From the IMG/VR virus record IMGVR_UViG_3300014204_000143: a stretch of 64,000 nucleotides of DNA. The stretch is one strand, 5' to 3'. Position numbers and translations under genes: made by a program. Position 1 is the stretch's first letter, and every line of letters starts with the position of its first letter. Below the pieces are notes generated by a model, which saw only the letters and a list, made by a program, of their open reading frames with translations, made no database searches and had not been told where the DNA came from. This DNA comes from a virus (taxonomy: Duplodnaviria > Heunggongvirae > Uroviricota > Caudoviricetes). Positions 45,466 through 60,660 of the stretch are shown here, one piece after another.

Positions 45466-45750
45466 TTATAACTCGATTCTATTTCGTAAATCATCAATAA
45501 TATCATTTATTCTTTCAACGAAATCAATATCTTTTTGGATTTCCTCAGCTAATTTACATTCTCTTACTCCTCTGTCTTCGTGGACATCTTTTAGTGTTTC
45601 TGATGTCAAAACACTTGATAATTGTAATGTCAAAGAAGCAACATTTTCATCTAATCTCTGGAGTTCTTTATCAAAATTTGACATTACTTTTTTGATTTCT
45701 GGTGTTTTGCCAATTTCCTGACCTGTGAAAGTTTGTTCAAAATTTTTCAT
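45466..45750 (-). CDS. Hypothetical protein preceded by a family-C element
   Basis: 94-aa ORF. Element copy at 45758-45787. Confidence 0.35.
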   Translation of the reverse strand: MKNFEQTFTGQEIGKTPEIKKVMSNFDKELQRLDENVASLTLQLSSVLTSETLKDVHEDRGVRECKLAEEIQKDIDFVERINDIIDDLRNRIEL

Positions 45751-45757
45751 ATTTTTT

Positions 45758-45787
45758 TATTTATCCCCTACTTAAATTTGAGAGGCT
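45758..45787 (-). promoter_or_regulatory. Family-C element copy 1 (TTTATCCCCTACTTAAATTTGAGAGGC, degenerate hairpin)
   Basis: Matches 60065-60097 and 60629-60660. Lies 8 nt upstream of ATG 45750. Confidence 0.4.
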
Positions 45788-45825
45788 ATTTTACTATTTT
45801 AATTTTTTGACCGACCATATAAATT

Positions 45826-46521
45826 TTACATACTAATAAATCTACCTAATTTATTTCTTTTTGAATTATATTTTTTAGAAAACACCTTATCTAAGTCTAA
45901 ACATTTTAGTATTCTATATCTAGCTGTTTCATACGGTATATTATATTTTTTTACCCAATACATAAGAGGTTTAGTTATTCCTTTATATGTTATTAGATTA
46001 TTGCATCTTTTATTACTTGCCTGTTCGCTCATTGTTACCCATTGACAATTTTTTTTAGAATAATTACCACTATTATCAATTCTATCTATAGACGTTTTCC
46101 TATCTCCATATTTTTTGGAATGCTTTGTATAACTTTCATACATATCATTTTTAAATTCTTCAAAGTTTTTCCACTCACATTTTATATTCCGTCCACCATA
46201 ATTTTTATAAGATATTGAATTTTTATTACAGGTTCTTGATTTTATAGCATACCATATATTATAAAATCTAGTCTTAGACATATTATGTTTTTTCCATTTG
46301 TATTTTAAACATCCACAACTTTTAGTATTTCCATTTATAAGATATGCTGTCTTTACTATTGCTTTATTTCCACAATCACACTTACAAACCCAATACGCAT
46401 TTCTGTTTTTTATGTGTGAAAATTTTATTGCTGTTAATTTATTAAATTTTTTTCCAGTAATATTTTTAATATTTTTATTCATATTCTTGTTCTTTTTTAT
46501 CTCTAAACAATATCCCCTCAC
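45826..46521 (-). CDS. Cys-rich protein with an HNH_3-like homing-endonuclease signature
   Basis: CKCDCGN...CGC at the N-terminus; ...SIDRIDNSGNYSKKNCQWVTMSEQASNK resembles the H-N-N motif of phage HNH_3 endonucleases. Confidence 0.4.
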   Translation of the reverse strand: MRGYCLEIKKNKNMNKNIKNITGKKFNKLTAIKFSHIKNRNAYWVCKCDCGNKAIVKTAYLINGNTKSCGCLKYKWKKHNMSKTRFYNIWYAIKSRTCNKNSISYKNYGGRNIKCEWKNFEEFKNDMYESYTKHSKKYGDRKTSIDRIDNSGNYSKKNCQWVTMSEQASNKRCNNLITYKGITKPLMYWVKKYNIPYETARYRILKCLDLDKVFSKKYNSKRNKLGRFISM

Positions 46522-46625
46522 CTGTGTCGTTTGCTAATTTTAGTTTGTTCATAGTTTTATTTTTTTTAATTATATCTTTTAAGAAATAAGGATAAAAAGC
46601 GGGTGTTAACATATTTATTTGTTAA

Positions 46626-47003
46626 TTAAAATATTTTTTCTAAAATTACTCTTATCCAATATGACATAAAATATGCACGAAGTTCAGTATCGTCTTTTCC
46701 TAAATCTCTAGCTTTTATCATATTGTCTAAATAATGTTGTAACTCGTGACATAAATAAGCAATACTTTGTGGAGATTTATCAAAGGTTTTTATCCAAATA
46801 AGATTATTATGTTTTCCATTATTATCAACAATAGAAAAACATTGTCCCTGTATATTCTCCCATGAATAAGGAACTACAAACTCCATATCTTTTCTGCCAC
46901 TTTCTTTTTTAAATATTTTAACTATTTCGTCAGCGTGACAATTTATTATAAGATGTAATGAATTTTCAAATAAATCTTTTTCAAAATAATAATAATTTTT
47001 CAT
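46626..47003 (-). CDS. Small HExxH-motif protein (putative Zn-metallopeptidase-like, ImmA/IrrE or SprT-like)
   Basis: LCHELQHYLD contains HExxH. It is the first gene behind promoter copy B2. Confidence 0.35.
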   Translation of the reverse strand: MKNYYYFEKDLFENSLHLIINCHADEIVKIFKKESGRKDMEFVVPYSWENIQGQCFSIVDNNGKHNNLIWIKTFDKSPQSIAYLCHELQHYLDNMIKARDLGKDDTELRAYFMSYWIRVILEKIF

Positions 47004-47028
47004 AAAACTTTGTTAATAACCTATAAAC

Positions 47029-47076
47029 AGTTTAACATACTAAAAACACCTTGTCAAGTGGTAATCTGTGGATAAC
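47029..47076 (-). promoter_or_regulatory. Sigma70-like promoter on the minus strand (TTGACA-17-TAAACT) with an exact DnaA-box 9-mer (TTATCCACA, seen as ctgtggataa on plus) 10 nt upstream of the -35
   Basis: Reverse complement: GTTATCCACAGATTACCACTTGACAAGGTGTTTTTAGTATGTTAAACT. Drives 46626..47003. Confidence 0.55.
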
Positions 47077-47136
47077 TTATAAATCAATTAGTTAAAAACG
47101 AATGTTATACTTAAATTATAATTAAATAAAATCAAA

Positions 47137-47418
47137 ATGGAACAAAATCTTTACAGCACTAGAGACTTAATTGAGGCCGCCTCCTTAATCGCTCTAAAAT
47201 TTCCCATGGTAAATATCGACTACCAGTCAGAAGACACAAAACTTGTCGGTTACTTCGTTTTTGAAGATAGTCCAGAATTACAAGAAATGGTTATCAAATC
47301 TTTATCAAAGCAATTAGCCTTTGAGCCGAGAGAATTTAATAGTATTATTAAAAGTCTCAAAGCTCAATTAGCCAATACAAAAAAAAGTCCGAGTAGTAAA
47401 TATTCGGGGAGCTACTAA
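47137..47418 (+). CDS. Hypothetical protein (first plus-strand gene after the divergence point)
   Basis: 93-aa ORF. Confidence 0.35.
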   Translation: MEQNLYSTRDLIEAASLIALKFPMVNIDYQSEDTKLVGYFVFEDSPELQEMVIKSLSKQLAFEPREFNSIIKSLKAQLANTKKSPSSKYSGSY

Positions 47419-47450
47419 GAAACTCTTTAGTTTTTTTTATTACGTTTGAC

Positions 47451-47497
47451 TTATCCACAGGACATATCTTGACAAGGTGTTTTTGTTGTAGTATAAT
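47451..47497 (+). promoter_or_regulatory. Consensus sigma70 promoter (TTGACA 47469-47474, 17-nt spacer, TATAAT 47492-47497) with an exact DnaA box TTATCCACA (47451-47459) upstream. It drives the tRNA-like locus.
   Basis: Seen directly: ttatccacag gacatatc TTGACA aggtgtttttgttgtag TATAAT. Confidence 0.6.
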
Positions 47498-47643
47498 GGT
47501 AGTGATTTCTTCGAAATCAAAAAAACTATTTCAGTAATCATCCAGTTCTCATACTTCTGGATGGTTATAGTGGGTTAGAAAAGTAGCAATTCGCAAGCCC
47601 CATAAGCTTGAGACACAGGTGCAAATCCTGTACCCGCCACCAA

Positions 47644-47736
47644 GCCACTTAGTAGTTTAATGGTAGAAAAACCAGAGGAAAAACACCCAGCGTAAGCTCG
47701 TGGAGATTGTTGGTTCGAGTCCAACTAGTGGCCCCA
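47644..47736 (+). tRNA. tRNA-like gene (~93 nt incl. encoded CCA). It has a canonical T-arm and acceptor stem, with a long D/anticodon/variable region (type II tRNA, or one carrying an insert).
   Basis: 5' GCCACTT pairs with 3' TAGTGGC (6/7). T-arm GTTGG TTCGAGT CCAAC is canonical, then discriminator C and CCA. The D-loop region AGTTTAATGGTAG contains the conserved GG. The anticodon stem could not be folded confidently by eye. Confidence 0.45.
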
Positions 47737-47834
47737 ATAATTAGGCATAAAAAACATGAAAAAGTTTGTAAAAAGTTCATTGGGTTGTTTTTATATAAGT
47801 TGCGTCATGTCTTCTTAAATGCCTAAACAGCCCA

Positions 47835-48143
47835 GTGATTTTTTTATATAACAAAATAATTATGAATCTAATAGAACACCGCCGACAAATTTATGACACT
47901 ATTGACAACATGTTTCAGGTGACAATGACTCCTGAACAGCTTAAGATTATTTCTAATTGCCTTAAACGTTACGCTATCCACTATTCGGAATCGGCTATCA
48001 AAACGATTCACGAACTGACTGAAGCCTTAGCGTCTAGAAAAGAGTCAAAAAAACAACCAAAACAAGTAAAAAAAGAAATTAAAAGAGTTCCTGTGATGGA
48101 AAAAACACCAGTTTATCCAAGAATAAGGTGTGCTAGATATTAG
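47835..48143 (+). CDS. Hypothetical protein
   Basis: 102-aa ORF (the true start may be the internal MNLIEH). Confidence 0.3.
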   Translation: MIFLYNKIIMNLIEHRRQIYDTIDNMFQVTMTPEQLKIISNCLKRYAIHYSESAIKTIHELTEALASRKESKKQPKQVKKEIKRVPVMEKTPVYPRIRCARY

Positions 48144-48269
48144 GGGTGTCAATCAACGAATGTTATAATTAAAGTGCAGTTGATTAAATACATTTAATTA
48201 TAACGCTTTGAAAAGCTGGTTCAACTGCAAATGTAGCCAGCTACTCATAGCGTTTTTAATTATAAAAAC

Positions 48270-48767
48270 ATGTCGTTAATAGAAGTTAAGACCCTAAATA
48301 AGTATATAATACCAAGTTTTTCTGGAGAAAATAAATATATAATTTATTTTTTAATTAGTAATGAAACCATTGTTTATGTAGGTCAAACAGAGTGTGGTTT
48401 AAGAAGAATTGGCGGACATTTTGGGTTTAAAGATTTTGATAGTTTTACATTTACTCCAGCACCATCAGATAAAAACGAAAGATTAAAATTAGAGGAACAA
48501 TATATTTTAAAATACCAACCAAAGTATAATAAAATAACTGAAAGAAAAACATTAATTTCAAAAGGATATATATCAATTGATTGTGCAATTAAAAAATATT
48601 ATAATAATCTATCTAATAAATTAAAATATAACGATTTCAAGAAATGGTTAATTGGTTTAGAAGTTAGCCTTGACTGTATAAAATTAAAATCTCGTGACGG
48701 GTGGGGCAAAATAGACATCTTTTTTATAAAATCAGAGTTAGAAAAAGAAATTAAAAAATTAATCTAA
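48270..48767 (+). CDS. GIY-YIG nuclease (homing-endonuclease-like)
   Basis: KYIIYFLISNETIVYVGQTECGLRRIGGH...ERLKLEEQYILKYQPKYN carries GIY...YIG, R, E and N in the canonical spacing. Confidence 0.6.
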   Translation: MSLIEVKTLNKYIIPSFSGENKYIIYFLISNETIVYVGQTECGLRRIGGHFGFKDFDSFTFTPAPSDKNERLKLEEQYILKYQPKYNKITERKTLISKGYISIDCAIKKYYNNLSNKLKYNDFKKWLIGLEVSLDCIKLKSRDGWGKIDIFFIKSELEKEIKKLI

Positions 48768-48772
48768 ATAAT

Positions 48773-49912
48773 ATGGAAAACGAAATTGAAATTGAAAAAG
48801 ATTTAAAAGGAGGAATAGACGACCTTATCGATAATATTGTTATAAATACTCGTCAGAATATTGACATGTTCTTATTAGAAGAAAAACCAGCAGAATTAAT
48901 GGCTCTATATGATTTTTATTATTATACTGCCAAGTGGCAAAAAACTAATCAACCAAGGGCAACAATTAGTTATGTTATGAAAGGTTTAAAATGGGGAGAA
49001 ACAAAAGTTAGAAAAAATAAAAAAATATTAATAAGATTAGGGCTAATAAGAGATTTTAGAGCTGTAGATAAAAAAACTGGAAAAATAAATGGCTGGTATA
49101 TAAAAGTTTGTTATATTTGGAGTAAAGAAAACCTATTAAATAGAATAAAAACCACCCTCTCAAAAATCCAACAGGTGGTTTACGAGGGGACAAATGCTTT
49201 AAGTGATTCTAATTTAAATGCTTTAAGTGATTCTGTAAATTTTCAGAACAACGCCGATTTAGCAGTACCCAACGTTTCTCCTAGTTCAACCTCGGAAGAA
49301 AATTTACCTTCACCTTCTTATAAGTGGGGTTTAAACTCGGCTAGTGCTACTTCTGCTGTTCCTGCTCCTCAACAAGATAATACTCCTCAACTTTCTTCTA
49401 CTACAACTTCTCAACATACGTCTATTCAACTATGCAGTCCAGTTAAACCTTCTTCAAAACAAGACTCTCTAGCTAAAAAGCCTCTAGCCTCATCGAAAAA
49501 TCCACCAAAAATTTTTTCAACCGAGGAAATCGAACGCTTCAAAAAGCTTCGTGCCGAAGAAGTCCAATGCTTCAACCTCGTCAGGCAGGACTTAACACCA
49601 TCACTAGAAACCCAGAAGTCACCAATTTACGACCCGACATTTGATTTTAATAGAGAAATGTTAAAGTTAGAGAATGACAAACAGGTACACGTTCGGATTA
49701 TTGCTTTGTTTTGGTATGCCAAGGGGACAACTTTTGAAAACGAAGGACAGTATAAAGCCCAATTTAGACGTTTGCTAAAGGGGGCTAGTCAACTAAAGCA
49801 CTACTCTTTCGATAAAATATTGAAAGCAATGGTGAGTGCTAGCGAAGAAAGTAAAAAAGTTGGTTATGACTGGGGACTTGAAACAGCGATTAAAAAGATT
49901 GATAAGGTCTAA
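48773..49912 (+). CDS. Hypothetical protein with N- and C-terminal globular parts separated by an S/T/P-rich disordered linker. Possibly a replication-initiation or DNA-binding protein.
   Basis: 379-aa ORF with a winged-helix-like N-terminus (KGLKWGETKVRKNKKILIRLGLIRDFR). No firm motif. Confidence 0.25.
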   Translation: MENEIEIEKDLKGGIDDLIDNIVINTRQNIDMFLLEEKPAELMALYDFYYYTAKWQKTNQPRATISYVMKGLKWGETKVRKNKKILIRLGLIRDFRAVDKKTGKINGWYIKVCYIWSKENLLNRIKTTLSKIQQVVYEGTNALSDSNLNALSDSVNFQNNADLAVPNVSPSSTSEENLPSPSYKWGLNSASATSAVPAPQQDNTPQLSSTTTSQHTSIQLCSPVKPSSKQDSLAKKPLASSKNPPKIFSTEEIERFKKLRAEEVQCFNLVRQDLTPSLETQKSPIYDPTFDFNREMLKLENDKQVHVRIIALFWYAKGTTFENEGQYKAQFRRLLKGASQLKHYSFDKILKAMVSASEESKKVGYDWGLETAIKKIDKV

Positions 49913-50067
49913 CCCCCTCCCAACGTGCCACTAGACGCACCACAATCAATTCTACGGCGTTTAAATCCTGTTTATGTCCAATCTACCACAAAGCACCATA
50001 CTCTTGTCCTGGGGCAAATTAGACACATTACAGGTCAAATCTAAAATTAACAAAAAAAATTAACAAA

Positions 50068-50313
50068 GTGTCTATGATTAAACTCATCATCAATCCTTTA
50101 ACGACAATGACTAAAAAGGTTGGAAGGCTAGCCATTGTTGGATATTTAAAGGCAAATAAAATTCCATTCGAAGTCGAGGAAAAAAATGTCCGCAAAGAGA
50201 AGTTTATTGTTGACAAAGATGAATATAATATCGATGATGTTGTTTCGAGAGAATACTTATATAAAATAATCGGAAAAAGAGTTAAGAGTGGTAATCTAAA
50301 CCCAACAAAGTAA
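50068..50313 (+). CDS. Hypothetical small protein
   Basis: 81-aa ORF. Confidence 0.3.
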   Translation: MSMIKLIINPLTTMTKKVGRLAIVGYLKANKIPFEVEEKNVRKEKFIVDKDEYNIDDVVSREYLYKIIGKRVKSGNLNPTK

Positions 50314-50403
50314 CTTATCCCCAGATTTTGTCAATAAAGAATTGACAGCCACTTTGAAATAGGTAATTATGAAAGCATAAAATAAAAATAACCAAAATTT
50401 AAA

Positions 50404-50979
50404 ATGAAAAAAGATAAATTGGAGATTGTCGCTCCACATTTCAAGAAGTCACAAGAAGTTACTAAAGAGAATCTCACGTTAATTTCTGATGTTATGTTTG
50501 CCATGGTTGATATATGCCAGAAGCTAGAAGAAGACAAAATAGTTTCTGATGCTTATGCTTTAGCCCATTGTCAAGTCGAATCAGAAACTCCGTTGAGATT
50601 TTTTGTTTTTAATATTACCAATCCAGAAATTTCAATGCTAATCGGCACCGATATTTCTCCTGTCATTATTAATCCATGTATTGTCAATCACACTAAAGTT
50701 TTTGTAGAAAAAGCAGAAGCGTGTTTGAGTGCGGCTGGGTATGGTGGAGCAATTGTTAAGAGGTTTAATAAAGTGACGGTAGAATTTAATGAACTTCAAA
50801 CCGACGATGATAAAACTTTCTATATGGGTGAAAGACGAACGATGAATCTAAGTGGAAAACTTTCTCAAATTTTTCAACACGAGATAGACCACTTCTTAGG
50901 TAGATACATATTTGAAGACGATATTATGGAAAGTATTGCCGAGATAATGGAAAAAGATAAAAAAAAGAAAGAGAAATAA
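50404..50979 (+). CDS. def: Peptide deformylase
   Basis: EACLSAAGYGG (EGCLS motif II) and QHEIDHFLG (HEXXH motif III). Confidence 0.75.
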   Translation: MKKDKLEIVAPHFKKSQEVTKENLTLISDVMFAMVDICQKLEEDKIVSDAYALAHCQVESETPLRFFVFNITNPEISMLIGTDISPVIINPCIVNHTKVFVEKAEACLSAAGYGGAIVKRFNKVTVEFNELQTDDDKTFYMGERRTMNLSGKLSQIFQHEIDHFLGRYIFEDDIMESIAEIMEKDKKKKEK

Positions 50980-51127
50980 TAAGAACGGATATGATTAAAG
51001 AGTTTATAATAGGAATATTATTATCCTCAGAAATGGCAAAATTAGAAGGAGAATCTTTTGATTTTGAATTTACATTAAGAAAAGTATTAAACGAAATAAA
51101 CGAAAACGAAAATTAAATAAAAAATTT

Positions 51128-52132
51128 ATGCGAAAATTAGTAACAGTTCAAAAGGTATTAGAAAAAAAATCAATAGAAGGAGCCGATAGAATTGAGGCAG
51201 TAAGGATTAATGGTTGGTGGGTAGTGACACAAAAAGACCAATTTAAAGTTGGCGAGTATTGTATTTATTTTGAGGTGGATTCGTTTTTGCCAATTAAACC
51301 AGAATTTGAATTTCTTTTAAATGGTAAGTCGCCTAAAAAAATGCTATACAAAGGAAAAGAAGTTGAGGGTATTAGGTTGAAAACAATTAAGTTAAAAGGA
51401 CAGCTGAGCCAGGGCTTAGTAATGCCAATTACCGAAACGATGATAATAAAAGAAATTGATGAAGATTTGTCAGATTATTTTGGAGTTATATTATACGAAC
51501 AACCAGTCCCACCACAACTTCAAGGATATGCTAAGGGCAATTTTCCAGGATTTATTCCAAAGACTGATGAAGAAAGAATACAAAATATGACGGAAATTTT
51601 TAATAATTATGTCGCCACAGAAAAGATTGATGGCACTTCTGCAACATATTATAAAAAAGACGGGGTATTTGGGGTTTGTAGTAGAAATTTAGAATTAGTT
51701 AAAGGGGAAAGTATTTATTGGAGAATCGCAGAAAAATATAATTTAGAAAATATAATTCCAGACGGGTTATGTTTTCAGGGGGAAATAATAGGAGAGGGTA
51801 TTCAAGGAAATCCTTTAAAGCAAACTGGTCAAGATATTTATTTTTTCAATGTCTATAATATTGAAAGCAATACTTATTTAGATTTTGATGAATTTCTAAA
51901 TATTTGTGAAAAATTAAATCTTAAAACTGTTCCAATTATAAATGACAATTTTTCTTTGCCAAAAAATGTTGATGATATGTTATGGTTTGCAGAAGGGTTT
52001 GCAGAAGGAAAAAGTTTATTGAATCCAAACGTAGAACGAGAAGGCGTTGTCGTCAGAAGTAAAAACAAAATAAATGGCGAAAGGATTTCTTTTAAAGCCA
52101 TTTCAAATACTTATTTATTAAATGAAAAATAA
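51128..52132 (+). CDS. ATP-dependent RNA ligase (Rnl2/DRB0094-like nucleotidyltransferase)
   Basis: Ligase motif I ATEKIDGTSATYY (KxDG), ...FQGEIIGEGIQGN and motif IV-like EGVVVRS. Confidence 0.6.
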   Translation: MRKLVTVQKVLEKKSIEGADRIEAVRINGWWVVTQKDQFKVGEYCIYFEVDSFLPIKPEFEFLLNGKSPKKMLYKGKEVEGIRLKTIKLKGQLSQGLVMPITETMIIKEIDEDLSDYFGVILYEQPVPPQLQGYAKGNFPGFIPKTDEERIQNMTEIFNNYVATEKIDGTSATYYKKDGVFGVCSRNLELVKGESIYWRIAEKYNLENIIPDGLCFQGEIIGEGIQGNPLKQTGQDIYFFNVYNIESNTYLDFDEFLNICEKLNLKTVPIINDNFSLPKNVDDMLWFAEGFAEGKSLLNPNVEREGVVVRSKNKINGERISFKAISNTYLLNEK

Positions 52133-52146
52133 TTAATTATAAAACT

Positions 52147-52746
52147 ATGTTTGGATTTAGTAAAAAACAAAAAGAAATAGAATTCATCACAAAACAACAA
52201 ATTGATGAAATTGTTGCTTCGTTAACTGATTTTATGGTAAAGAGTGAACTACCACTAGTTGATTTTTCCGAGGGCGATACGCTTAGGTGGAAAGTAACAA
52301 AAGACACATATAAACCGTCTTGGGATATACTAAAAGAAATCAACGATCTTAAATGTGAAAATGGTCAAAGAAAACGTGAAAATAAAGAACTAAAAGACGA
52401 AATCAATGTCTTAAATTCTAATAACGATTTTCTACGTAACGAAATTAAAAAAATAAATGAACAATGTGTCCGATACGATGAAAATTTCAAAAGAATCAAA
52501 GACGAGTTTTATGTGCCTGACTATTTAGTAACTACTGGTGAGGCGACTGGACATCAAAATATTTTAAAGTCGGAGGCTGTTAGTTTTGATAAATTAAATA
52601 GTGGAGCTTTTAAAATGATTGTTAACGGAGAACTTAGTTTTGGTGGGATAGACACACATCATACTTCCAAAGAAAATTACGAAAACCATAAATCATTAAT
52701 TGATAAGTGGAAAAAAGAAATCAATAATAACAAACCAAAAAAATAA
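52147..52746 (+). CDS. Hypothetical coiled-coil protein
   Basis: 199-aa ORF. Confidence 0.3.
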   Translation: MFGFSKKQKEIEFITKQQIDEIVASLTDFMVKSELPLVDFSEGDTLRWKVTKDTYKPSWDILKEINDLKCENGQRKRENKELKDEINVLNSNNDFLRNEIKKINEQCVRYDENFKRIKDEFYVPDYLVTTGEATGHQNILKSEAVSFDKLNSGAFKMIVNGELSFGGIDTHHTSKENYENHKSLIDKWKKEINNNKPKK

Positions 52747-53640
52747 ATGGAGAGCAGTCCAAAAAAAATAGAAAGCTTGTCGCTAGATAATGGATTGAAA
52801 AAAAGATTTGAAGAAGAAAAACATAAGATTGTTAGAATATCAGAAATAGCCATCCCAAAACTAGCAGAGCCTATCTCTACTGGTATTTTGGGTTTAGATA
52901 ATATTTTTCATGGTGGATTTAGACCAGGTGAATTAGTGATTATTGGTGGGGTTAGTGGTAACGGAAAAAGTTTACTCACTCTTCAACTTATTAAAAATTA
53001 TTCTAACGTTGGTCAGAAAGTTTTATTCTTTAGCTTTGAAGAGCCTGTTGACAGAATCAGATGGCGACTAGAAAGAATGGGTGGCGACAATGAAAACCTT
53101 GAGTGTTATGTGCCGAAGTCATTAAAAGACGGAACGGTTAATTGGATAGAAGAGAAAGTAATTGATGCTATTTGTAATCACTCGATTGAAATTTTTATTA
53201 TCGATAATCTTGATTTTTTAACAGTTGAGACTGGATTTAGAAATGACGATAAGTGGGCGATGCAGTCTAGAATTATTGGAATGTTAAAAAGGATTGCGAA
53301 TAATTACAAAGTGATTGTTATTTTAAATGTCCACGTCAAAAAGAATCGAGATAGTGACCTGCCTACAATGGAAGACATTTGGGGTTCGGGTGATATTTTC
53401 AAATTATCTGACACAGTTATTTTTATTCATCGTATTATGGAAGGAAATAAATTGTTTAAAAATAGTGGAGAGTCAAAACCAACCAATGAAAGTTTTATTT
53501 ATGTCAAGAAGAATCGGTTGTGGGGAGAGTTATCTTCGTTTAGAATGATTTATGATAATGGGGAATTAAAATATAAAGAGCCAGATGCACCAGTCGAACC
53601 TGCAATTAATCTTGAAGACGTCTCTAAAATGTTTGAATAA
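52747..53640 (+). CDS. DnaB-like helicase C-terminal-domain / RecA-fold ATPase
   Basis: LGLDNIFHGGFRPGELVIIGGVSGNGKSLLTLQL (Walker A in DnaB context), Walker B ...IFIIDNLDF, and only 297 aa (no N-terminal DnaB domain). Confidence 0.6.
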   Translation: MESSPKKIESLSLDNGLKKRFEEEKHKIVRISEIAIPKLAEPISTGILGLDNIFHGGFRPGELVIIGGVSGNGKSLLTLQLIKNYSNVGQKVLFFSFEEPVDRIRWRLERMGGDNENLECYVPKSLKDGTVNWIEEKVIDAICNHSIEIFIIDNLDFLTVETGFRNDDKWAMQSRIIGMLKRIANNYKVIVILNVHVKKNRDSDLPTMEDIWGSGDIFKLSDTVIFIHRIMEGNKLFKNSGESKPTNESFIYVKKNRLWGELSSFRMIYDNGELKYKEPDAPVEPAINLEDVSKMFE

Positions 53641-53645
53641 TAAAT

Positions 53646-54398
53646 ATGGAAGAATTAAAAAAAATATTAGAAGTATGCCTAAAAGATACTTGTGATATTG
53701 TAAAAAAACATATTGATACTCATAAGGTTTATTATTATAATCCTAAAAAATTTTCAGAAAGAAGTGAAATTGTCTTATATAAAAACGTTAAAGATGACGA
53801 CCTAAATTCAATAATAAAATCTGAATTATTATATAAAAATTACTGGGAGTCTTGTAAAGGAAATACAAGAAAGTTAATTAGTGACTTTATAGAAACGATT
53901 GACAAAGACTGGGTGAAGTCAACACGTTTAGAATATTTAAAAAAACTTGAAAGAGCAATCCAAATCGATATAACACAGACAAAATTTCTAATCAACAAAA
54001 ACAGAATACTTGGCTATGATTTTATTAACAGTGTTTTAGAGGAACTTTTTGAACGCATAGAAAAAAAATACAAAAAAGTGTCCATTGAGCTCGCCTTCCT
54101 AAAAAGTGGTAAAGAAAAATTAGATGACTTTATCTCTAGGGATATAATTAGAAGGTGTCGAGAAGTCCCGATTGAAGATTTGGTTGATGTTCCAATCATT
54201 AATGCAGGTAATGGTAGAAAAAAATGTCGCTGTCCCTTTCATAGTGAGAAAACCGCCTCGTTTGTAATTTATAAAGAAAATACTTATCACTGTTTTGGGT
54301 GCAACGAAAGTGGAAAGAATGCCGTTGATTTTATTATGAAAAAAAATAAGTATTCGTTTGGGGAGGCGATTGAATTTTTAAAAAGATACTCATGTTAA
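53646..54398 (+). CDS. Primase-type CHC2 zinc-finger protein with the Zn finger at the C-terminus and no TOPRIM domain
   Basis: CRCPFHSEKTASFVIYKENTYHCFGCNESGKNAVDF matches the DnaG zinc-binding domain (CPFH.E.TPSF.V....YHCFGCG..G). Confidence 0.65.
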   Translation: MEELKKILEVCLKDTCDIVKKHIDTHKVYYYNPKKFSERSEIVLYKNVKDDDLNSIIKSELLYKNYWESCKGNTRKLISDFIETIDKDWVKSTRLEYLKKLERAIQIDITQTKFLINKNRILGYDFINSVLEELFERIEKKYKKVSIELAFLKSGKEKLDDFISRDIIRRCREVPIEDLVDVPIINAGNGRKKCRCPFHSEKTASFVIYKENTYHCFGCNESGKNAVDFIMKKNKYSFGEAIEFLKRYSC

Positions 54399-54745
54399 AA
54401 ATGATAAAAATATTCTCGGTGCTTCTGGCTAATTCTGACAGACAAGAATTGTGGTTGGGTCAGGCTGATACGTTAGAAGATGCAATTGATAAAGCAAGAA
54501 TAACTATCAGAGAAAAATTAGAAGATGAAGAGGATATGGGAGTATTTATGTATAACAGTATGATTATTAATGTAGTGACAAGCGAATGTGAGTTAGAGAG
54601 TCCCGAAGATGATATGCCAAGTAAAAACGATATTATGAACTTAATAATTAAACATAAGGATAAAAAAATGTTTAAAGAGTTTGATAGTATTTTTACCACC
54701 GAAGAATTGAGATATTTAAAAGATAAATTAAAAATAAAAAAATGA
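54392..54745 (+). CDS. Hypothetical protein
   Basis: 117-aa ORF. Confidence 0.3.
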   Translation: MLKMIKIFSVLLANSDRQELWLGQADTLEDAIDKARITIREKLEDEEDMGVFMYNSMIINVVTSECELESPEDDMPSKNDIMNLIIKHKDKKMFKEFDSIFTTEELRYLKDKLKIKK

Positions 54746-54957
54746 AAAAAGAACTAACACAAAAAGAATTTGAATCACTAAAAAAAGCAGGATACACTGG
54801 TGAAAATAACATTGGAGATATGATAGAATTTTTGGGTCACGATTGTTATGATATTGATCACGTTGATAGACATCATTGGAAAGTTGAAAGTGAACGAGAG
54901 TTTACCGCCGAAGAAATGATTGATGCATTAGATTTAGCAATTAAAGATAACCTATAA
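54742..54957 (+). CDS. Hypothetical small protein
   Basis: 71-aa ORF. Confidence 0.3.
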   Translation: MKKELTQKEFESLKKAGYTGENNIGDMIEFLGHDCYDIDHVDRHHWKVESEREFTAEEMIDALDLAIKDNL

Positions 54958-55223
54958 TGAAAATACTTAAATTTAGTACATCGTGGTGTCCTTCGTGTAT
55001 CGCTATGAAACATAAAGTTGAAGACGTAGAAAAAGAAACTGGGGTTGTGGTTGAACATCTTGACGCTGATAAAGAAACTGAAAAAGTTGAACAGTATAAC
55101 ATCAACGAACTGCCAGCTTTTATTTTTGTAGATGACGATGGCAACGAACTTTATCGAGCACACGGGATTATTCCAAAATTAAAATTGATAGAGTTAATAA
55201 ATAAATATGCAACTAATAAATAA
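54957..55223 (+). CDS. Thioredoxin/glutaredoxin-like protein
   Basis: KFSTSWCPSCIAMK carries WCxxC. 88 aa. Confidence 0.7.
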   Translation: MKILKFSTSWCPSCIAMKHKVEDVEKETGVVVEHLDADKETEKVEQYNINELPAFIFVDDDGNELYRAHGIIPKLKLIELINKYATNK

Positions 55224-55452
55224 AAATAATAAACAGTGTCATATTGAAATAGAATTATACGATTGTTATGGGTTTGGAGATATGATATTAAATCAGCTAT
55301 TAAACAACTCACTGAAACTAGAAAAACAATACAGGTGGATGAGTTGTAAAAATTTAAATAAAACCATTAGTGCTATTGGTTTATTTAAATTAAATGACAA
55401 TCAGTTTGAAATGCTAGAGGTTAAAGACATTAACAAAATAATAAATAAATAA
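55207..55452 (+). CDS. Hypothetical small protein
   Basis: 81-aa ORF. Confidence 0.3.
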   Translation: MQLINKNNKQCHIEIELYDCYGFGDMILNQLLNNSLKLEKQYRWMSCKNLNKTISAIGLFKLNDNQFEMLEVKDINKIINK

Positions 55453-55454
55453 AA

Positions 55455-57011
55455 ATGCAACAAGAAGAAAAAGATAAACTTACAGTAGAAAAAATTAATC
55501 AGGAACTTACAGAGGATTTAATAAAAAAAGACAAAGAAGAATTATTAAAAGAAAAAGTAAAGTTAGATGCTAGAAATAAATTAGAAGAATGTCTAAAGGC
55601 TGATGGTTTTATGATTCTGTTTAATAGTAAACACCTGGTAGTGGAAACTCCAATTGATACAAGATTTAGATTAGACCATTCAACAACTCGTGTTAGTTTT
55701 TCAAGTGATGATATTATGCAGAGCGTTGATGCTTGTGTGACTCAACTCGGTGTAAAACTAGAACCAGCACCAATTGTGGTTGTTCCTCCAAAGGTAGAAA
55801 CTCCTAGAAAGCCCTTAAAGATAGCCATTATTACACACTTTAATCAAATGCAGGAGTCATATTCTCCAGCAAAAGCAGTTAAAAACCAAATCAAAATTCT
55901 ACAAAAGTTTGGTCACGAAGTTGTCTTTTTTACCCAAGAAGGTAGCACTGTCGATGTCGGTTGTGAAATGAGAGCAAAAGTACCAAAGTTTAAAAGAGTT
56001 AAAGGTGTAATTAATAGTGAAGCCAAACAAAAAATGATTGATATGCTCCGAGAAGAATTAACAAATGATTTTGACTTGGCAATTACTCACGACTTTTATC
56101 TTGATGATTGTATTACTTATCGAGAGGCGATTAAAGAATGTGGAGTTGATATACCTTGGTTGCATTGGGCAAGAAGTGGTGTCGGTCATAAGATTGATTG
56201 TTATGCTCCAAATACTCACTGGGTTTATATGAACTACGCTGACACTCAAAGATTTTCTAACAACATCAGTGTTCCTCAAGAAGATATACGTGTAGTCTTT
56301 AACGAAAAAGACCCATCGCTGTTTTTTAAGTGGGACCCGATTACAACGATGATTTCAAACAGAATGCGACTCTGGGAAAAAGATATTATCCAAACTTATC
56401 CTATCTGCACTACCCGTATGGATGCAAAAGGACTGAATGAAGTTTTAAAAGTTTTCTCGTGTTTAAAAAGACTCGGTAAAAAGGTTTGTTTGGTTATCTG
56501 TAATTCAAATGGTAGAAAAAGAATTGAAGAAATAAATGCAAAGATAGAATATGCTAAAACTTTAGGACTAGTTCACGGTGAAGATTTTATTTTTACCAAT
56601 CAACTTGCCAACGAAGAATATCAAATTGAAAGTGAAATTCCAAATAAGGTCGTTGCAGAATTATTGTTGATTTCTAATTTGTTTATCTTTCCTACGGTGG
56701 CTGAAGTTTGTTCTAATATTTTATTAGAGGCTTCGATGTCTAAGAATCTTTTGGTCTTAAATTCTGACTTACCAAATTTGTTTGACTTTGCTGACAGTGG
56801 TGCAGTTTTGTCTTATCCCTTTTCTTCTAATATTAGCCTTCATTATCAAAGTAAAGACCAAGAATCTTATGACAGACTAACTAAACAAATTATCGGACAA
56901 CTTGAAAGCAATAAATCCGATAGACAGTTTAGACACGTTTGGTCAAAGCATAATCTAGAAACTATTTATCGAGATATGTTAGAACCCGTAATTTATGAAT
57001 TAATAAAATGA
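55455..57011 (+). CDS. Hypothetical protein, possibly a GT-B-like glycosyltransferase
   Basis: 518 aa. The central IAIITHFNQMQESYSPAKAVKNQIKILQKFGHEVVFF resembles GT4-type N-terminal Rossmann starts. This is weak. Confidence 0.25.
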   Translation: MQQEEKDKLTVEKINQELTEDLIKKDKEELLKEKVKLDARNKLEECLKADGFMILFNSKHLVVETPIDTRFRLDHSTTRVSFSSDDIMQSVDACVTQLGVKLEPAPIVVVPPKVETPRKPLKIAIITHFNQMQESYSPAKAVKNQIKILQKFGHEVVFFTQEGSTVDVGCEMRAKVPKFKRVKGVINSEAKQKMIDMLREELTNDFDLAITHDFYLDDCITYREAIKECGVDIPWLHWARSGVGHKIDCYAPNTHWVYMNYADTQRFSNNISVPQEDIRVVFNEKDPSLFFKWDPITTMISNRMRLWEKDIIQTYPICTTRMDAKGLNEVLKVFSCLKRLGKKVCLVICNSNGRKRIEEINAKIEYAKTLGLVHGEDFIFTNQLANEEYQIESEIPNKVVAELLLISNLFIFPTVAEVCSNILLEASMSKNLLVLNSDLPNLFDFADSGAVLSYPFSSNISLHYQSKDQESYDRLTKQIIGQLESNKSDRQFRHVWSKHNLETIYRDMLEPVIYELIK

Positions 57012-57421
57012 AATTAAAAGAGTTTATAATCGATGAAGTCTGGTGGACTGTTGATGATATTTTTAAAGATGTTAAATATTTTTTTAGAAGACATCTCTGG
57101 AAACTTATTAAAGGATATTACCCAGAAGATATTTGGAATCTCGGCTATTACTTTTCTTATCACATTCCTTTTATGCTCCGTAATTTTATTGAGTCCAATA
57201 GATGCGGTTATCCTTGCAATACTACCCAAGAAGAATGGGAAAAAAAATTACAGAGTGTCCTTTACAAACTTGAGTCAATTAAACGTTATGAATCACAAGC
57301 CCCAGATAAGTGTAAAGAATATGACTGGGAAAAAGATTTAAAAGAAGAAGAGACTGCAGAAGAAGAATTTGTTAAGGGGTGGCACGAACTTGGGGATATA
57401 ATTTTTAAACTTTGGGATTAA
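57008..57421 (+). CDS. Hypothetical protein
   Basis: 137-aa ORF. Confidence 0.3.
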   Translation: MKLKEFIIDEVWWTVDDIFKDVKYFFRRHLWKLIKGYYPEDIWNLGYYFSYHIPFMLRNFIESNRCGYPCNTTQEEWEKKLQSVLYKLESIKRYESQAPDKCKEYDWEKDLKEEETAEEEFVKGWHELGDIIFKLWD

Positions 57422-57574
57422 TATGAAAAAAAAAGAAACTCCAAAAATGTCTTATCTGGCTTGTCCTTATTGTGATGGCATAATTCATGCAATATCGCTC
57501 GAAGATTTTATTTGCGAGCACTGCAAGAAGTCCCTTAAGTTTGAAGATGCATTTAAAAATATTAAATTAAAAAA

Positions 57575-57949
57575 ATGTTAGAGTTAGGACAATTTCTTAG
57601 TGGAAGGTGTGAAAATTATGAAACTAAAGAGTGGGTTGATGCTCTGATTGATTATTTGTTAGAAAAAATTAAAATAGTATATGTTAACAAATATCATAAA
57701 ATTTTTGATGAAGTAGACGACCTAGACAATATTGAATTAAAAGGGATTATTGTCAGTTCATATTATTGGGGAGATGATGAAAAAGAAATTAAAAAACCAA
57801 ACCTTAAATTCAAGGGACTAAAACAAGAAATTCAATGGTATAAATATCCTGGTCGGGGTCAAACGTCAAAATATAAATATACAGACTTAGAATGGATTGA
57901 CTGGTTTAATAAAGCACTTAAAATAATTAGGAAAAATAATAAATATTAA
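57575..57949 (+). CDS. Hypothetical protein
   Basis: 124-aa ORF. Confidence 0.3.
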   Translation: MLELGQFLSGRCENYETKEWVDALIDYLLEKIKIVYVNKYHKIFDEVDDLDNIELKGIIVSSYYWGDDEKEIKKPNLKFKGLKQEIQWYKYPGRGQTSKYKYTDLEWIDWFNKALKIIRKNNKY

Positions 57950-57950
57950 A

Positions 57951-58826
57951 ATGAAAAATGTTCTTATAACTGGATACCGAGGTTTTGTCGGTCGAAGTCT
58001 CTGCACTCAACTCGCTTGTCAAGGAATTACCCATAGCGGATATGACTTGCTTGATGGCGATGATATTCGTGATAAGTTTACGCTTGATACTAAATTTATG
58101 AATGGTAATTTTGATAGCGTGATTCATCTGGCGGCTTTAACTGGAGTCCCACGGAGCGACGAGTATTATGAAGAATATTTTAGCACCAACGTTGTCGGGA
58201 CACAGAACGTGGTGAATCTAGCAAAAAAATATGGAGTCAAAAATATAATCTTTTATAGTTCATCTTCTGTCTATGGTGGAGCAACTAATGAAAAAGGAAT
58301 CAGTGAGAGTTTTCAACTTCGTCCAATTTCTACTTATGGAATTACAAAAAAAACTGGCGAAGATATTATAAAAAATAGCGGACTCAACTGGGCAATTGTT
58401 CGGCCATTTACGATTTATGGTGAGCAAGGAAAACCATTTGCAGTGATTAAGAAGTGGATTAATCAGATTAAGGCTGGACAACCTATCACGTTTTATGGTG
58501 ATGGCACATCTTCACGAGGGTATACTTACATTAAAGACATTGTTAAAACCACGATTGACTTACTAAACAAAATGGAATCAGGGATGGGGGCTGACATTTA
58601 TAACGTAGGAGGATCTGAAAATATAACCCTTAACGAACTTTATCAAATTTTTGAAGAAGTCTGTAAGCGTAAGAAAATAAAAATTGAAAGAGTGAATAAA
58701 GAGAGACCCGACTATGATATAGCAAACTCCTTTGCTGATGTGACTAAAGCAAAACTTTTACTGGGATATGAACCTAAGGGAAATTTTAAAGAAGCCACGA
58801 GAGCGATACTGGAGGCTGAACTGTAG
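57951..58826 (+). CDS. NAD-dependent sugar epimerase/dehydratase/reductase (extended SDR)
   Basis: N-terminal ITGYRGFVGRSL (GxxGxxG), YSSSSVYGG and YGITK (YxxxK). Confidence 0.8.
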   Translation: MKNVLITGYRGFVGRSLCTQLACQGITHSGYDLLDGDDIRDKFTLDTKFMNGNFDSVIHLAALTGVPRSDEYYEEYFSTNVVGTQNVVNLAKKYGVKNIIFYSSSSVYGGATNEKGISESFQLRPISTYGITKKTGEDIIKNSGLNWAIVRPFTIYGEQGKPFAVIKKWINQIKAGQPITFYGDGTSSRGYTYIKDIVKTTIDLLNKMESGMGADIYNVGGSENITLNELYQIFEEVCKRKKIKIERVNKERPDYDIANSFADVTKAKLLLGYEPKGNFKEATRAILEAEL

Positions 58827-58829
58827 ATT

Positions 58830-58918
58830 GATTGCGACATTTTAAAGCGTTGATTGCGACATTTTATTCTTAAATTTTAATGCCAGTCAATGTTTAAGCC
58901 ATTTAATTGCGACATTTT
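58830..58918. repeat. Three direct copies of ATTGCGACATTTT (58830, 58853, 58905) in the convergent intergenic region
   Basis: Seen directly: ttgATTGCGACATTTTaaagcgttgATTGCGACATTTTattc...ttaATTGCGACATTTTtaa. Confidence 0.7.
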
Positions 58919-58922
58919 TAAG

Positions 58923-58975
58923 GAAAAAAAATAGACTGGAAAGTGTTTTTAAGTCCTGCTCCAGTCTATTTTTGT
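58923..58975. terminator. Bidirectional rho-independent terminator between convergent genes
   Basis: aaaaaaaa ATAGACTGG-[21 nt]-CCAGTCTAT ttttg: a 9-bp stem flanked by an A-run and a T-run. Confidence 0.65.
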
Positions 58976-59005
58976 ATTGGTTGTAAGGTTAAAGCTTACT
59001 TGTGG

Positions 59006-59266
59006 TTATCTTTTCCAACTAACTCCGTGTTTGTAAAACCCTGTTGCAAAAGTTGTAAATAACCACGCTATTGTGCCAAGTAAACTGTAAAAAGTATAAA
59101 AGACTATATCTCTATCAAAAGTATCTCTTGATGATGATGGATATTGTTTTTTAAAATATCCATTCATTGCTCCAACATTAAACCAGACACAAATAAAATA
59201 GATAAATATAATCAATACCGTTGTCATAGATTTACTTTGTAAGGTTGATGAACGGTAAAGTAGCAT
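59006..59266 (-). CDS. Small integral membrane protein
   Basis: 86 aa, two hydrophobic helices. Overlaps the SPFH gene's 3' end. Confidence 0.35.
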   Translation of the reverse strand: MLLYRSSTLQSKSMTTVLIIFIYFICVWFNVGAMNGYFKKQYPSSSRDTFDRDIVFYTFYSLLGTIAWLFTTFATGFYKHGVSWKR

Positions 59267-60056
59267 TTGGAATCATTTGTCCTGGTAATTTTCCGTCCCA
59301 TTTTTCGATAGACTTTAGTGCTACATAGTCTGCACCACCTTGACTGCTAATAGCCTGTGCCTGAATTTTGATTGCTTCGGCTTCACCTTTTGCTTGAGCT
59401 ATTCTCTGTTCCGCTTCATATTTACTTTGTTCTAGTTTATTTTTAGCCGCCAAAGCATCTTGTTCGGCAGTTACCTTTGCTTCGATAGCCTTGTTAAAAG
59501 ATTCTGAAAAATCAAAATTGATGATGTTGACTTGGTCAATAATAATTCCATAAGGTATCATTTTTTCTGAAAGAGTTGTTTTAATTTCGTCTCTGACAAC
59601 CTCTCGCTTAGTGATAAGCTCTTCGGCAGTATATTTTGATGTTGCCGCCTTAACGCTTTCTTGTAATGCTGGGTCAATTAGTCTTGACTTATAATCGATA
59701 CCAACTGATTTATAAATTGATAAAGCATAGTCAGGACTAAGATTAAAATTGACTGCTAATTTAGAACTGACAGTCTGTAAATCTTTGCTAGCCGCACTTG
59801 CCTCGACTTCGTCTTTTTGAACTTTAACGTCCATTTTAACAATTTTTTCAATATAAGGAACTTTTAAATTAAATCCCTCACCGACCGTTGAAATAGCCGC
59901 CCCAAATCTAACCCTAACACCTCTTTCGCCAGCATTAACGATTGACCACGAGCCAAATAAAACTGGTAACAACACAAAGAAAAATATTATAGTTGACATA
60001 ATAATTCTGCCAACGTAAACTTTTCCATCCCTTTCACTCACAAAAAAATTTTTCAT
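59232..60056 (-). CDS. SPFH/Band-7 (prohibitin/HflC-like) membrane protein
   Basis: N-terminal TM helix, then ...VNAGERGVRVRFGA...GFNLKVPYIEKIVKMDVKVQ... and a long Ala/Glu/Gln-rich coiled coil, typical of the SPFH domain. Confidence 0.75.
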   Translation of the reverse strand: MKNFFVSERDGKVYVGRIIMSTIIFFFVLLPVLFGSWSIVNAGERGVRVRFGAAISTVGEGFNLKVPYIEKIVKMDVKVQKDEVEASAASKDLQTVSSKLAVNFNLSPDYALSIYKSVGIDYKSRLIDPALQESVKAATSKYTAEELITKREVVRDEIKTTLSEKMIPYGIIIDQVNIINFDFSESFNKAIEAKVTAEQDALAAKNKLEQSKYEAEQRIAQAKGEAEAIKIQAQAISSQGGADYVALKSIEKWDGKLPGQMIPNATLPFINLTK

Positions 60057-60064
60057 AGTTTTAT

Positions 60065-60097
60065 TTTATCCCCTACTTAAATTTGAGGGGTTAATTT
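60065..60097 (-). promoter_or_regulatory. Family-C element copy 2 (TTTATCCCCTACTTAAATTTGAGGGGTTAATTT), 8 nt upstream of ATG 60056
   Basis: Perfect 5-bp inverted repeat CCCCT/AGGGG with an 11-nt loop. Confidence 0.45.
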
Positions 60098-60364
60098 ATA
60101 ATAGTCATTTTTTTTATCCCAAAGATATAATCCTTGTGGCATGGTAAATTTTTTACCAAGAGAAATATTTCCACTTTTCATTGAAAAACTTTCTCCTTTT
60201 TCAATTTTTATGAGGTTTAATTTTTCATCAAAAAACAAATCAATTCTATCTGAGTTTATTATTTTTTGTGAAGCCAACGATATTGAGATATTCACTATCT
60301 TTTCTCTCTGTATAACTCTAATCCCAAAATAATGTGTTCTTTTATTTATAAATTTTTTAAACAT
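60077..60364 (-). CDS. Hypothetical protein
   Basis: 95-aa ORF. Confidence 0.3.
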   Translation of the reverse strand: MFKKFINKRTHYFGIRVIQREKIVNISISLASQKIINSDRIDLFFDEKLNLIKIEKGESFSMKSGNISLGKKFTMPQGLYLWDKKNDYYKLTPQI

Positions 60365-60368
60365 AGAA

Positions 60369-60620
60369 TTAAAATTTAAGTTTACAATTTTTTATATGGC
60401 TTACTAAACTAACTGGATAAAATTTTATACCTTTATCCCACTCAACAAATTTAGTATCAGCCATTCTAGTAAAACAATCAAGGCAAATAAGGTTTTCTCG
60501 CTGACTTATGTGGGTAACTAATTCCCATATTTTTTTAGGAACCAAGAAATCAATTGAATATTCTCTATGGCAAAGTGAACATATTTGTCTGTGTGGTTTA
60601 CGTTCATCAGATTTTTTCAT
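60369..60620 (-). CDS. Small Zn-finger protein
   Basis: CSLCHREY...CLDCF. Confidence 0.3.
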   Translation of the reverse strand: MKKSDERKPHRQICSLCHREYSIDFLVPKKIWELVTHISQRENLICLDCFTRMADTKFVEWDKGIKFYPVSLVSHIKNCKLKF

Positions 60621-60628
60621 GTTTTTTA

Positions 60629-60660
60629 TTTATCCCCTACTTAAATTTGAGGGGTTAATT
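60629..60660 (-). promoter_or_regulatory. Family-C element copy 3, 8 nt upstream of ATG 60620
   Basis: Identical core to copy 2. Confidence 0.45.

Follow-up and report, generated by a model that had tools for sequence, protein, structure and literature searches.

A start-proximal palindromic repeat shared by three unrelated genes of an uncultivated phage, a candidate mobile gene-junction cassette

In a 64,000-nt stretch of DNA from an uncultivated phage of the Caudoviricetes (IMG/VR record IMGVR_UViG_3300014204_000143; hereafter the window), we observed a palindromic repeat of ~35 bp, here called E, just 5' of three unrelated genes. E is a real, small repeat family. Our preferred reading, tentative at a probability of about 0.38, is that it would serve as a mobile gene-junction cassette with a cis effect at the transcript level. 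Copies were searched for with a 30-mer, allowing up to 3 mismatches, both in the window and in 100 shuffles. Exactly 3 matches were found in the window, all on the minus (coding) strand, at 45760-45789 (E1, 3 mismatches), 60065-60094 (E2, exact) and 60629-60658 (E3, exact), and 0 in the 100 shuffles, so the three copies reported in the initial annotation do exist. A core of 23 nt, CTCAAATTTAAGTAGGGGATAAA, was identical in 3/3 copies and runs from the last bases of the 5' arm (CT) through loop and 3' arm into the spacer, while E2 and E3 have ~33 nt in common. The dyad is CCCCT-N11-AGGGG, with sequence conservation of both its centre (AAATTTAAGT) and the GGATAA on its 3' side. As mRNA, the copies are AAAATAGCCTCTCAAATTTAAGTAGGGGATAAATAAAAAAAT-ATG (E1), AAATTAACCCCTCAAATTTAAGTAGGGGATAAAATAAAACT-ATG (E2) and AAATTAACCCCTCAAATTTAAGTAGGGGATAAATAAAAAAC-ATG (E3), with 13 nt from the last G of the stem to the AUG in E2 and E3 and 14 nt in E1.

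All three copies lie on the minus strand. E3 (60621..60660, followed by the ATG at 60618-60620) consists of AATTAACC-CCCT with the 5' arm at 60650-60654, the loop CAAATTTAAGT at 60639-60649, the 3' arm AGGGG at 60634-60638 and the spacer ATAAATAAAAAAC at 60621-60633. E2 (60057..60096) precedes the ATG of an SPFH gene at 60054-60056, with its 5' arm at 60086-60090, loop at 60075-60085, 3' arm at 60070-60074 and spacer ATAAAATAAAACT at 60057-60069. E1 (45751..45789, followed by the ATG at 45748-45750) is divergent: its 5' arm is CCTCT (45781-45785, giving one U.G pair), its loop lies at 45770-45780, its 3' arm at 45765-45769 and its 14-nt spacer at 45751-45764. The low end of E1 is 45760 rather than the 45758 of the initial annotation, and the distance of 8 nt between element and ATG given for all copies holds for E2 and E3 and becomes 9 nt for E1 under the same definition. 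Similarly, the TTAACC ascribed to every copy is present in E2 and E3 and lacking in E1, because there ATAGCCTCT replaces TTAACCCCT in the 5' arm region. The 5' flank of E1, AAATTAAAATAGTAAAATA, recurs before the open reading frame (ORF) at 45116-45313, and since this flank is itself a repeat, E1 looks chimeric, a putative recombinant within the 5' arm.

The genes that follow E are a 94-aa ORF with no family match (45466..45750, after E1), an SPFH/Band 7 protein of 274 aa (59232..60056, after E2; the initial annotation had named an SPFH protein among the downstream genes) and a zinc-ribbon-like protein of 83 aa (60369..60620, after E3), all on the minus strand; the SPFH gene is the last of a minus-strand block and precedes a convergent terminator region. 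Two ORFs on the 5' side also run into the repeat. A 152-aa ORF (60641..61099, minus; C-terminus ...KKLTPQI) crosses the 5' arm of E3 and ends at the loop TAA (60641-60643), and a 95-aa ORF (60077..60364, minus; C-terminus ...YKLTPQI) crosses the 5' arm of E2 and ends at the loop TAA (60077-60079). These two ORFs are otherwise unrelated, yet they pass through E in the same frame and acquire the same KLTPQI-stop tail. The sequences show that E was copied as a block before three unrelated genes and that it gives the last codons and the stop codon to two unrelated upstream ORFs.

Outside the phage we found one good homologue of E. In L048 (Logan SRR1798196), an SPFH gene 75% identical to that of the window lies in a tRNA-flanked island beside GH92, ROK and MFS genes, and is preceded by AAACC-CCGAC-AATTTAA-GTCGG-ATAACTTAAAAAT-ATG. 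Loop (AATTTAAGT), AACC flank and GGATAA are all retained in this version, as is the spacing of 13 nt to the AUG. Its arms (CCGAC/GTCGG) differ from those of E (CCCCT/AGGGG) yet remain complementary, with one C-G pair replaced by G-C, and the hairpin was present in the predicted fold. MAFFT did not bring the L048 stem into register with E. A weaker look-alike, AACCGG-N9-CCGGGATAAAAATAAAAT-ATG, precedes a 65%-identical SPFH gene in L053 (fold z 0.12). E-type elements therefore move with SPFH genes in at least two mobile contexts, and in this phage two further genes have received a copy. What looked like tRNA 3' ends immediately 5' of the elements in L053 and in L046 (a contig with a different repeat, described below) was not confirmed by ARAGORN.

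Absence from related genomes, which the initial annotation had named as grounds for rejecting the element, was largely what we observed at orthologous positions, with the diverged L048 version as the counterexample. Orthologues of the 83-aa gene exist at 64-81% identity; the two inspected (L266, 75%; L268, 81%) both lack E, one junction being plain A-rich sequence and the other an overlapping gene. Most close SPFH orthologues were also devoid of it: at 65-75% identity, L049, L050/L051, L052 and L231 showed no hairpin upstream, while L232 and L233 carried a different hairpin ~40 nt upstream. The same phage was seen in Logan SRR6484787, where contig L001 breaks exactly at the E2 repeat. No match was returned by a search of IMG/VR with the E 23-mer or of JGI metagenomes with a 20-mer of E. 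The pattern AACC..AATTTAAGT..GGATAA gave 20 chance matches in coding DNA, none of them relevant, a 16-mer from the 3' half of E gave 12 matches, all unrelated, and the RtcB-based relatives in IMG/VR (33 loci) were not syntenic and none had E.

We compared 81 ORF starts, seeking a Shine-Dalgarno (SD)-like 4-mer at -22 to -4. Such a 4-mer was absent in 73/81 starts and present in 8/81, three of these eight being the E copies. The frequency of G was 0-9% at each position from -13 to -3, and A peaked at -3 (0.70), -6 (0.77), -8 and -11, the commonest start context consisting of variants of TAAATAAAAAAnn-ATG. The spacer of E is the same generic A-rich, G-free context. The start pattern of this phage is thus SD-independent and A-rich, as in the Bacteroidetes, where initiation is tuned by A at -3, -6, -12 and -13 together with low structure (PMC6847099).

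Folding showed the RNA hairpin to be weak. The stem is 5 bp with an A/T-rich loop of 8-11 nt, and the RNA energies for E1, E2 and E3 were -4.9, -7.9 and -7.9 kcal/mol. Against shuffled sequences the z values were -0.65 to -1.3, with 23-53 of 200 shuffles folding equally well or better. In predicted folds from -45 to +25, the AUG and the A-rich spacer were unpaired, and the sole arm change in E1 (C to U) retains a G.U pair on the sense strand. In an Rfam scan of the window, tRNA-Met alone reached its gathering score, and nothing with an E-value below 9 was returned over E2 or E3.

A sister repeat, family D, shares the layout of E, and the description of E as a second sense-oriented, start-proximal palindromic family is supported. 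Family D has the form (T/C)TAACC-GATGG-TAAATAG-CCATC-TAAG...ATG, with the hairpin GATGGTAAATAGCCATC at 43037-43053, 43504-43520 and 44013-44029 and a half copy lacking the 5' arm at 43359-43380 (all minus). In both families AACC flanks the 5' side of a 5-bp stem that contains G+C, the A/T-rich loop includes a stop codon, and TAA, an A-rich spacer and the ATG follow; both are sense-oriented, with upstream ORFs that stop inside. They differ in stem and loop sequence (TAACC-GATGGTAAATAGCCATC-TAAG..ATG for D), in distance to the ATG (7-11 nt for D and 13-14 nt for E) and in fold, D folding better than E (z -2.4 to -3.9). Unlike E, which had no match there, the D hairpin also occurred unchanged in 9 other IMG/VR contigs (L234-L240, L242, L243, among the D-bearing records IMGVR_UViG_3300021077_000018; 11 copies). 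The 9 contigs measure 15-40 kb with 29-33% G+C, and the scanned loci carried chaperonin, DnaB, DNA methylase and terminase genes. Their D layout was always (C/T)TAACC-hairpin-TAA(G/A)A..-ATG at 7-10 nt from a start, and the upstream ORF often stops at the loop TAG. We then held the flanks and loop fixed and left the arms free (TAACC-N5-TAAATAG-N5-TAA). Because the canonical GATGG/CCATC arms alone paired fully among 113 pattern matches, D shows no stem covariation. Half-D copies (the one in the window and those in L237, L238, L242 and L243) have no 5' arm but keep TAATAGCCATCTAAGAAATAT-ATG exactly, a retention of ~20 nt. By analogy these half copies would be the expected product of recombination inside the stem-loop, as described for the promoter-early stem-loop (PeSL) cassettes of other phages (PMC2839356). 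The lack of covariation and the half copies point to conservation of the 3' half of these cassettes as sequence, and the two results argue against a purely structural role for D.

Other junctions in the small-ORF region, which is rich in repeated junction sequences, carry other repeats. The start-proximal repeat CAATTTATAAATTTAAC(G/A)AT was observed before two small ORFs (42364-42405 and ~42598-42640, minus), and AGCCAATAATTAAAATAAT-ATG before two others (44804-44825 and 45040-45062).

The transcription signals of the phage bear on how E might act. The window is A+T-rich (~30% G+C) and forms part of ENA contig ERZ27247350 k141_1632479 (92.7 kb), in reverse orientation. An 18-kb query matched no GenBank phage by megablast, and there is no close relative among them. 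The nearest matches of GroEL and the helicase were in Bacteroides, Flavobacterium and Cellulophaga phages, and those of the SPFH protein were proteins of Patescibacteria metagenome-assembled genomes (MAGs). Three near-consensus sigma70 promoters, TTGACAAGGTGTTTTT...TAAACT/TATAAT, were observed at 31859-31887 (minus), 47029-47057 (minus) and 47469-47497 (plus). An extended -10 motif, TGTTATAAT, is repeated before structural genes, and a canonical long-stem U-tract terminator lies near 59000, where gene blocks converge. Given SD-less starts together with sigma70 promoters and a U-tract terminator, the host is therefore likely to be SD-independent yet to use ordinary promoters and terminators; from the affinities of the SPFH protein, Patescibacteria are a possible host. 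Scans for sigma70 promoters and for terminators flagged E as neither. Pfam/PHROGs scans of ~48 window ORFs and five flank ORFs, with ~19 kb of the contig outside the scan, revealed no RNA polymerase (RNAP), sigma factor or MerR-type regulator. The scanned set includes every window ORF long enough for a single-subunit RNAP, and the large proteins of 1648 and 1692 aa had no RNAP match; an 889-aa ORF of the adjoining flank was covered by the PHROGs scan only, its precomputed Pfam list being empty.

Several further observations concern these signals. The three sigma70 promoters are near-identical and share CTTGACAAGGTGTTTTT, and two of them diverge around a small DUF5659 ORF (47137-47418) and tRNA-Met; the region around the divergent pair is probably an early control region in which the -35 overlaps an operator. 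Two structural genes are each preceded by a 67-nt repeat (3322-3388 and 11946-12012, plus; 87% identical) that contains a small CCCNTTGGG hairpin, the perfect palindrome TTAGTTAT-N2-ATAACTAA and the extended -10 TGTTATAAT; it resembles a late promoter that carries a site for a regulator. In the convergent intergenic region (58827-59231), the canonical terminator is bidirectional (AAAAAAAATAGACTGGA...TCCAGTCTATTTTT), and ATTGCGACATTTT occurs as 3-4 direct repeats, which could be iterons or binding sites. In Patescibacteria MAGs (L131-L210), SPFH genes carry TTGACC/TTGCCC-N17-TAAGnT 8-9 nt before the ATG and no SD, which suggests that their transcripts may be leaderless or near-leaderless.

Taken together, we favor E as a ~35-bp, orientation-specific, portable gene-junction cassette of phage genes that are translated without SD. 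It would have two parts, a dyad or hairpin followed by an ordinary A-rich, G-free initiation tract whose AUG stands 13-14 nt past the stem. On a polycistronic transcript, E would form a stem-loop between cistrons that borders the ribosome-binding window on its 5' side; its loop would terminate the upstream reading frame, and the stem-loop would shield the downstream A-rich start region from pairing with upstream sequence. It may also be a binding or processing site of a sequence-specific factor, giving the downstream cistron a defined and protected 5' end. Masking of an SD would play no part in this mechanism. In every copy, and equally in L048 and L053 with their different spacer sequences, 13-14 nt separate the stem from the AUG; the boundaries of the copies are sharp, and three sense-strand copies were observed where 0 were expected. 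The fixed orientation and near-fixed AUG distance of this shared layout point to a cis-acting expression signal and not to chance.

Several observations weigh against this reading. The E hairpin is weak and no better than that of shuffled sequence, and the sequence conservation of its loop and 3' flank exceeds what an exclusively structural role of the RNA would demand. Symmetric changes in the arms are equally expected of a palindromic protein-binding site. The homologues outside the phage come down to the single good one in L048, the L053 element being marginal (z 0.12), and family D showed no stem covariation in its 113 matches. Half-D copies imply, in addition, that the 3' half may be read as sequence, either as DNA or as RNA, and not as a hairpin.

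A promoter is the alternative that survives best, and we regard it as possible though somewhat unlikely. E would then be a compact promoter, or promoter and operator, for middle or moron-type expression, with the loop TAAGTA, or GGATAAA(A)T at -14 to -7, as a -10-like element of short-leader or leaderless transcripts. The dyad would be a PeSL-like read-through attenuator, or the site of a dimeric regulator in an over-long spacer (MerR-like, TTAACC-20 bp-TAAAAT). Exact conservation over 23-33 nt is typical of sites recognized by proteins or RNAP, and G-14, T-12 and A-11 stand at a constant distance from the ATG in E2, E3, L048 and L053. E2 has TAAAAT exactly 6 nt before its ATG, much as the SPFH genes of Patescibacteria MAGs have TTGACC-N17-TAAGnT 8-9 nt before theirs, and E with its SPFH gene and downstream terminator resembles a moron. 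The sporadic distribution and the half and chimeric copies also fit the behavior of PeSLs, whose stem-loops may sit between, or overlap, the -35 and -10 boxes (PMC2839356), and half-D copies retain the putative -10 and start region. Other features do not fit a promoter. The sigma70 scan misses E, which has neither a TG extension nor, on manual checking, a -35 spaced at 16-18 bp; T at -7 is missing from the -10 candidates of E1 and E3, and the analogous TAAGAA hexamer of family D is just 2-5 nt from the ATG. AACC shifts with the stem and not with the ATG (~16 bp in L048, 20 bp in E), and is therefore unlikely to be a -35. The evident promoters of the phage (TTGACA-17-TAAACT/TATAAT and TGTTATAAT) are unlike E, and no phage RNAP, sigma factor or MerR-type regulator was found in the scanned ORFs (the larger window ORFs and five flank ORFs). 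A MerR-type promoter has its -35 and -10 boxes 19-20 bp apart around a dyad and comes with a MerR-family regulator; E2 fits this layout (TTAACC-20 bp-TAAAAT-6-ATG), E1 has no -35, and both E1 and E3 have TAAATA.

It is unlikely, but more credible than the proposals that follow, that E is a selfish or neutral repeat spread by recombination, left as a scar when modules were shuffled and itself devoid of regulatory function. Its absence at orthologous junctions, the chimeric E1, the identical tails on unrelated ORFs, the assembly break at the repeat and the lack of matches in IMG/VR or JGI metagenomes would all be expected of such a repeat. Yet orientation and AUG distance are strictly retained in every copy, and the L048 version keeps the loop, GGATAA and the spacing while its arms co-vary. 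The exact conservation of D over 9 viral contigs with different flanking genes likewise argues for selection.

A broader proposal, in which E, D and the L048 version together represent previously undescribed start-associated hairpin modules of phages with SD-independent hosts, we consider improbable. In such modules a short helix ~13 nt 5' of the AUG would dock where the SD/anti-SD helix usually sits or, alternatively, would recruit a sequence-specific factor, making E a portable initiation or mRNA-protection signal exchanged by phages.

The model of the initial annotation, that AGGGGA on the 3' arm is an SD hidden in the stem and that translation is controlled by this structure, did not stand. 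AGGGG could pair with the canonical anti-SD (4 G-C and one G.U) and is the sole G-rich tract near these three starts. However, the genes of the phage are SD-independent (73/81 without an SD-like motif, with G depleted from -13 to -3), and the G-run ends 13-14 nt before the AUG, outside the usual SD spacing of ~5-10 nt, so that a working SD, and masking as a mechanism, are very unlikely. The stem is also weak (-4.9 to -7.9 kcal/mol), with pairing kept in L048 by different arms, orthologues do without E, and SD-blind lineages tune translation by A-rich, unstructured leaders (PMC6847099). Least probable of all is a function of the plus strand, as a weak intrinsic terminator (a hairpin followed by TTAATTT(T)) or through TAAATTTG as a Bacteroidota-type -7 box: E3 does read CCCCT..GAGGGG-TTAATTTTTTATTT on that strand, family D is flagged as terminator-like there, and TAAATTTG fits the Bacteroidota-type -7 consensus TAnnTTTG, but the stem is weak (5 bp with an 11-nt loop), the terminator scan does not flag E, there is no -33 TTTG, L048 carries TAAATTGT in place of TAAATTTG, the clear phage promoters are of the TTGACA/TATAAT and not the Bacteroidota type, and there is no plus-strand gene to serve.

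We made a number of additional observations within the window and its relatives. Long repeats of 12-nt periodicity (TCAACTTCAAGTTCTAC...) at 1-300, 2330-3275 and 5060-5230 (plus) encode Ser/Thr-rich tracts of structural-block proteins of 951 and 147 aa. A repeated domain of ~230 nt (3746-3978 and 9241-10934, plus) was observed in a 466-aa SU10-adaptor-like protein and in four copies in the 1648-aa protein. The 89-nt tRNA-Pro(agg) at 45341-45429 (minus) has an acceptor stem of 8 bp together with a long extra arm, and a tRNA-like T-arm follows tRNA-Met at ~47740-47790 (plus) with no ARAGORN call. Both RtcB and an Rnl-type RNA ligase are encoded (51128-52132, plus, and 61521-62900, minus), an RNA-repair tool kit. 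A LAGLIDADG homing endonuclease domain forms part of an intein within the 1251-aa primase-helicase of the relative L266 (2410-6165).

Very little is known of gene expression signals in phages of Patescibacteria-like and other SD-independent hosts. If functional, E and D would be a portable gene-start signal of phages whose hosts ignore the SD, shuffled between genes and between phages, and would parallel the T4-type PeSL cassettes and the still-unexplained SAS/ESAS motifs of mycobacteriophages. At present, E may be described as a small phage-specific repeat.

Among known systems, several that might account for E were compared and rejected. E shares the start AATTAACCC with the T3 promoter and has TA-GGGGA where T3/T7 promoters have TA-GGGAGA; the 23 nt of a T7-class promoter is also the size of the invariant core of E. 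Alignment of E to T3 nevertheless needs four gaps, and no single-subunit RNAP was found among the scanned ORFs. An N4-type hairpin promoter has a 5-7 bp stem, a 3-nt loop and a virion RNAP gene; E has a loop of 8-11 nt, and neither the 1648- nor the 1692-aa protein has an RNAP match. On the sense strand the stem of E is followed by an A-tract and not the U-tract of an intrinsic terminator, and E was not flagged as one. A further apparent family, GTGCACATTGGTGCAC, with 5 copies in a single 59-kb phage contig (IMGVR_UViG_3300033145_001323; L046, L244, L251, L253), is not of the same class as E, being start-proximal in just 2/5 copies (12-13 nt before ATG, the rest far from starts); it is probably a repressor operator.

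Lambda nut sites (boxA plus the boxB hairpin) and other protein-bound 5-bp RNA hairpins are alike to E in part. Lambda boxB is GCCCT-loop-AGGGC, and nut sites, like E, join a linear conserved element to a G+C stem of 5 bp and are few in each genome; they work on the sense strand of early transcripts. The boxB loop is 5 nt of purine, unlike the 8-11 nt A/T loop of E, which also lies directly at gene starts, and no N-like protein or downstream terminators were identified for E.

The Start-Associated Sequences and Extended SAS (SAS/ESAS) of Cluster K mycobacteriophages (PMC3203893), still of unverified function as of 2025 (PMC12699233), are placed much as E is. Each is an asymmetric conserved motif that lies within a few bases of the start codons of some non-structural genes, in one orientation, and inverted repeats at a variable distance often precede SAS; the likeness of E is one of layout only. 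The SAS 13-bp consensus, GGGATAGGAGCCC, includes an SD-like GGAG, its host uses SD, and each genome has 11-19 copies, in contrast to 3 copies of E per 64 kb in a non-SD phage. E reads AGGGGATAAAT against SAS GGGATAGGAGCCC, with the GGGATA hexamer alone in common, probably by chance.

The PeSLs, mobile regulatory cassettes of T4-type phages (PMC2839356, PMC4122927), share with E a short, repeated, gene-oriented intergenic cassette directly 5' of small ORFs of unknown function in a plastic non-structural region. Both contain a stem-loop, are sporadic among relatives and show chimeric or half copies consistent with stem-loop recombination. A PeSL is ~100 bp, with strong sigma70-type -35/-10 boxes and a terminating stem-loop; E is ~35 bp, has no recognizable sigma70 promoter or U-tract, and has a conserved loop sequence and a position 13-14 nt from the AUG. 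By analogy, then, E would work most like a PeSL cassette and resembles SAS/ESAS in placement, while failing the defining sequence features of both, and would be best filed as a variant of the mobile start-associated or regulatory cassettes of phages, in an SD-independent setting.

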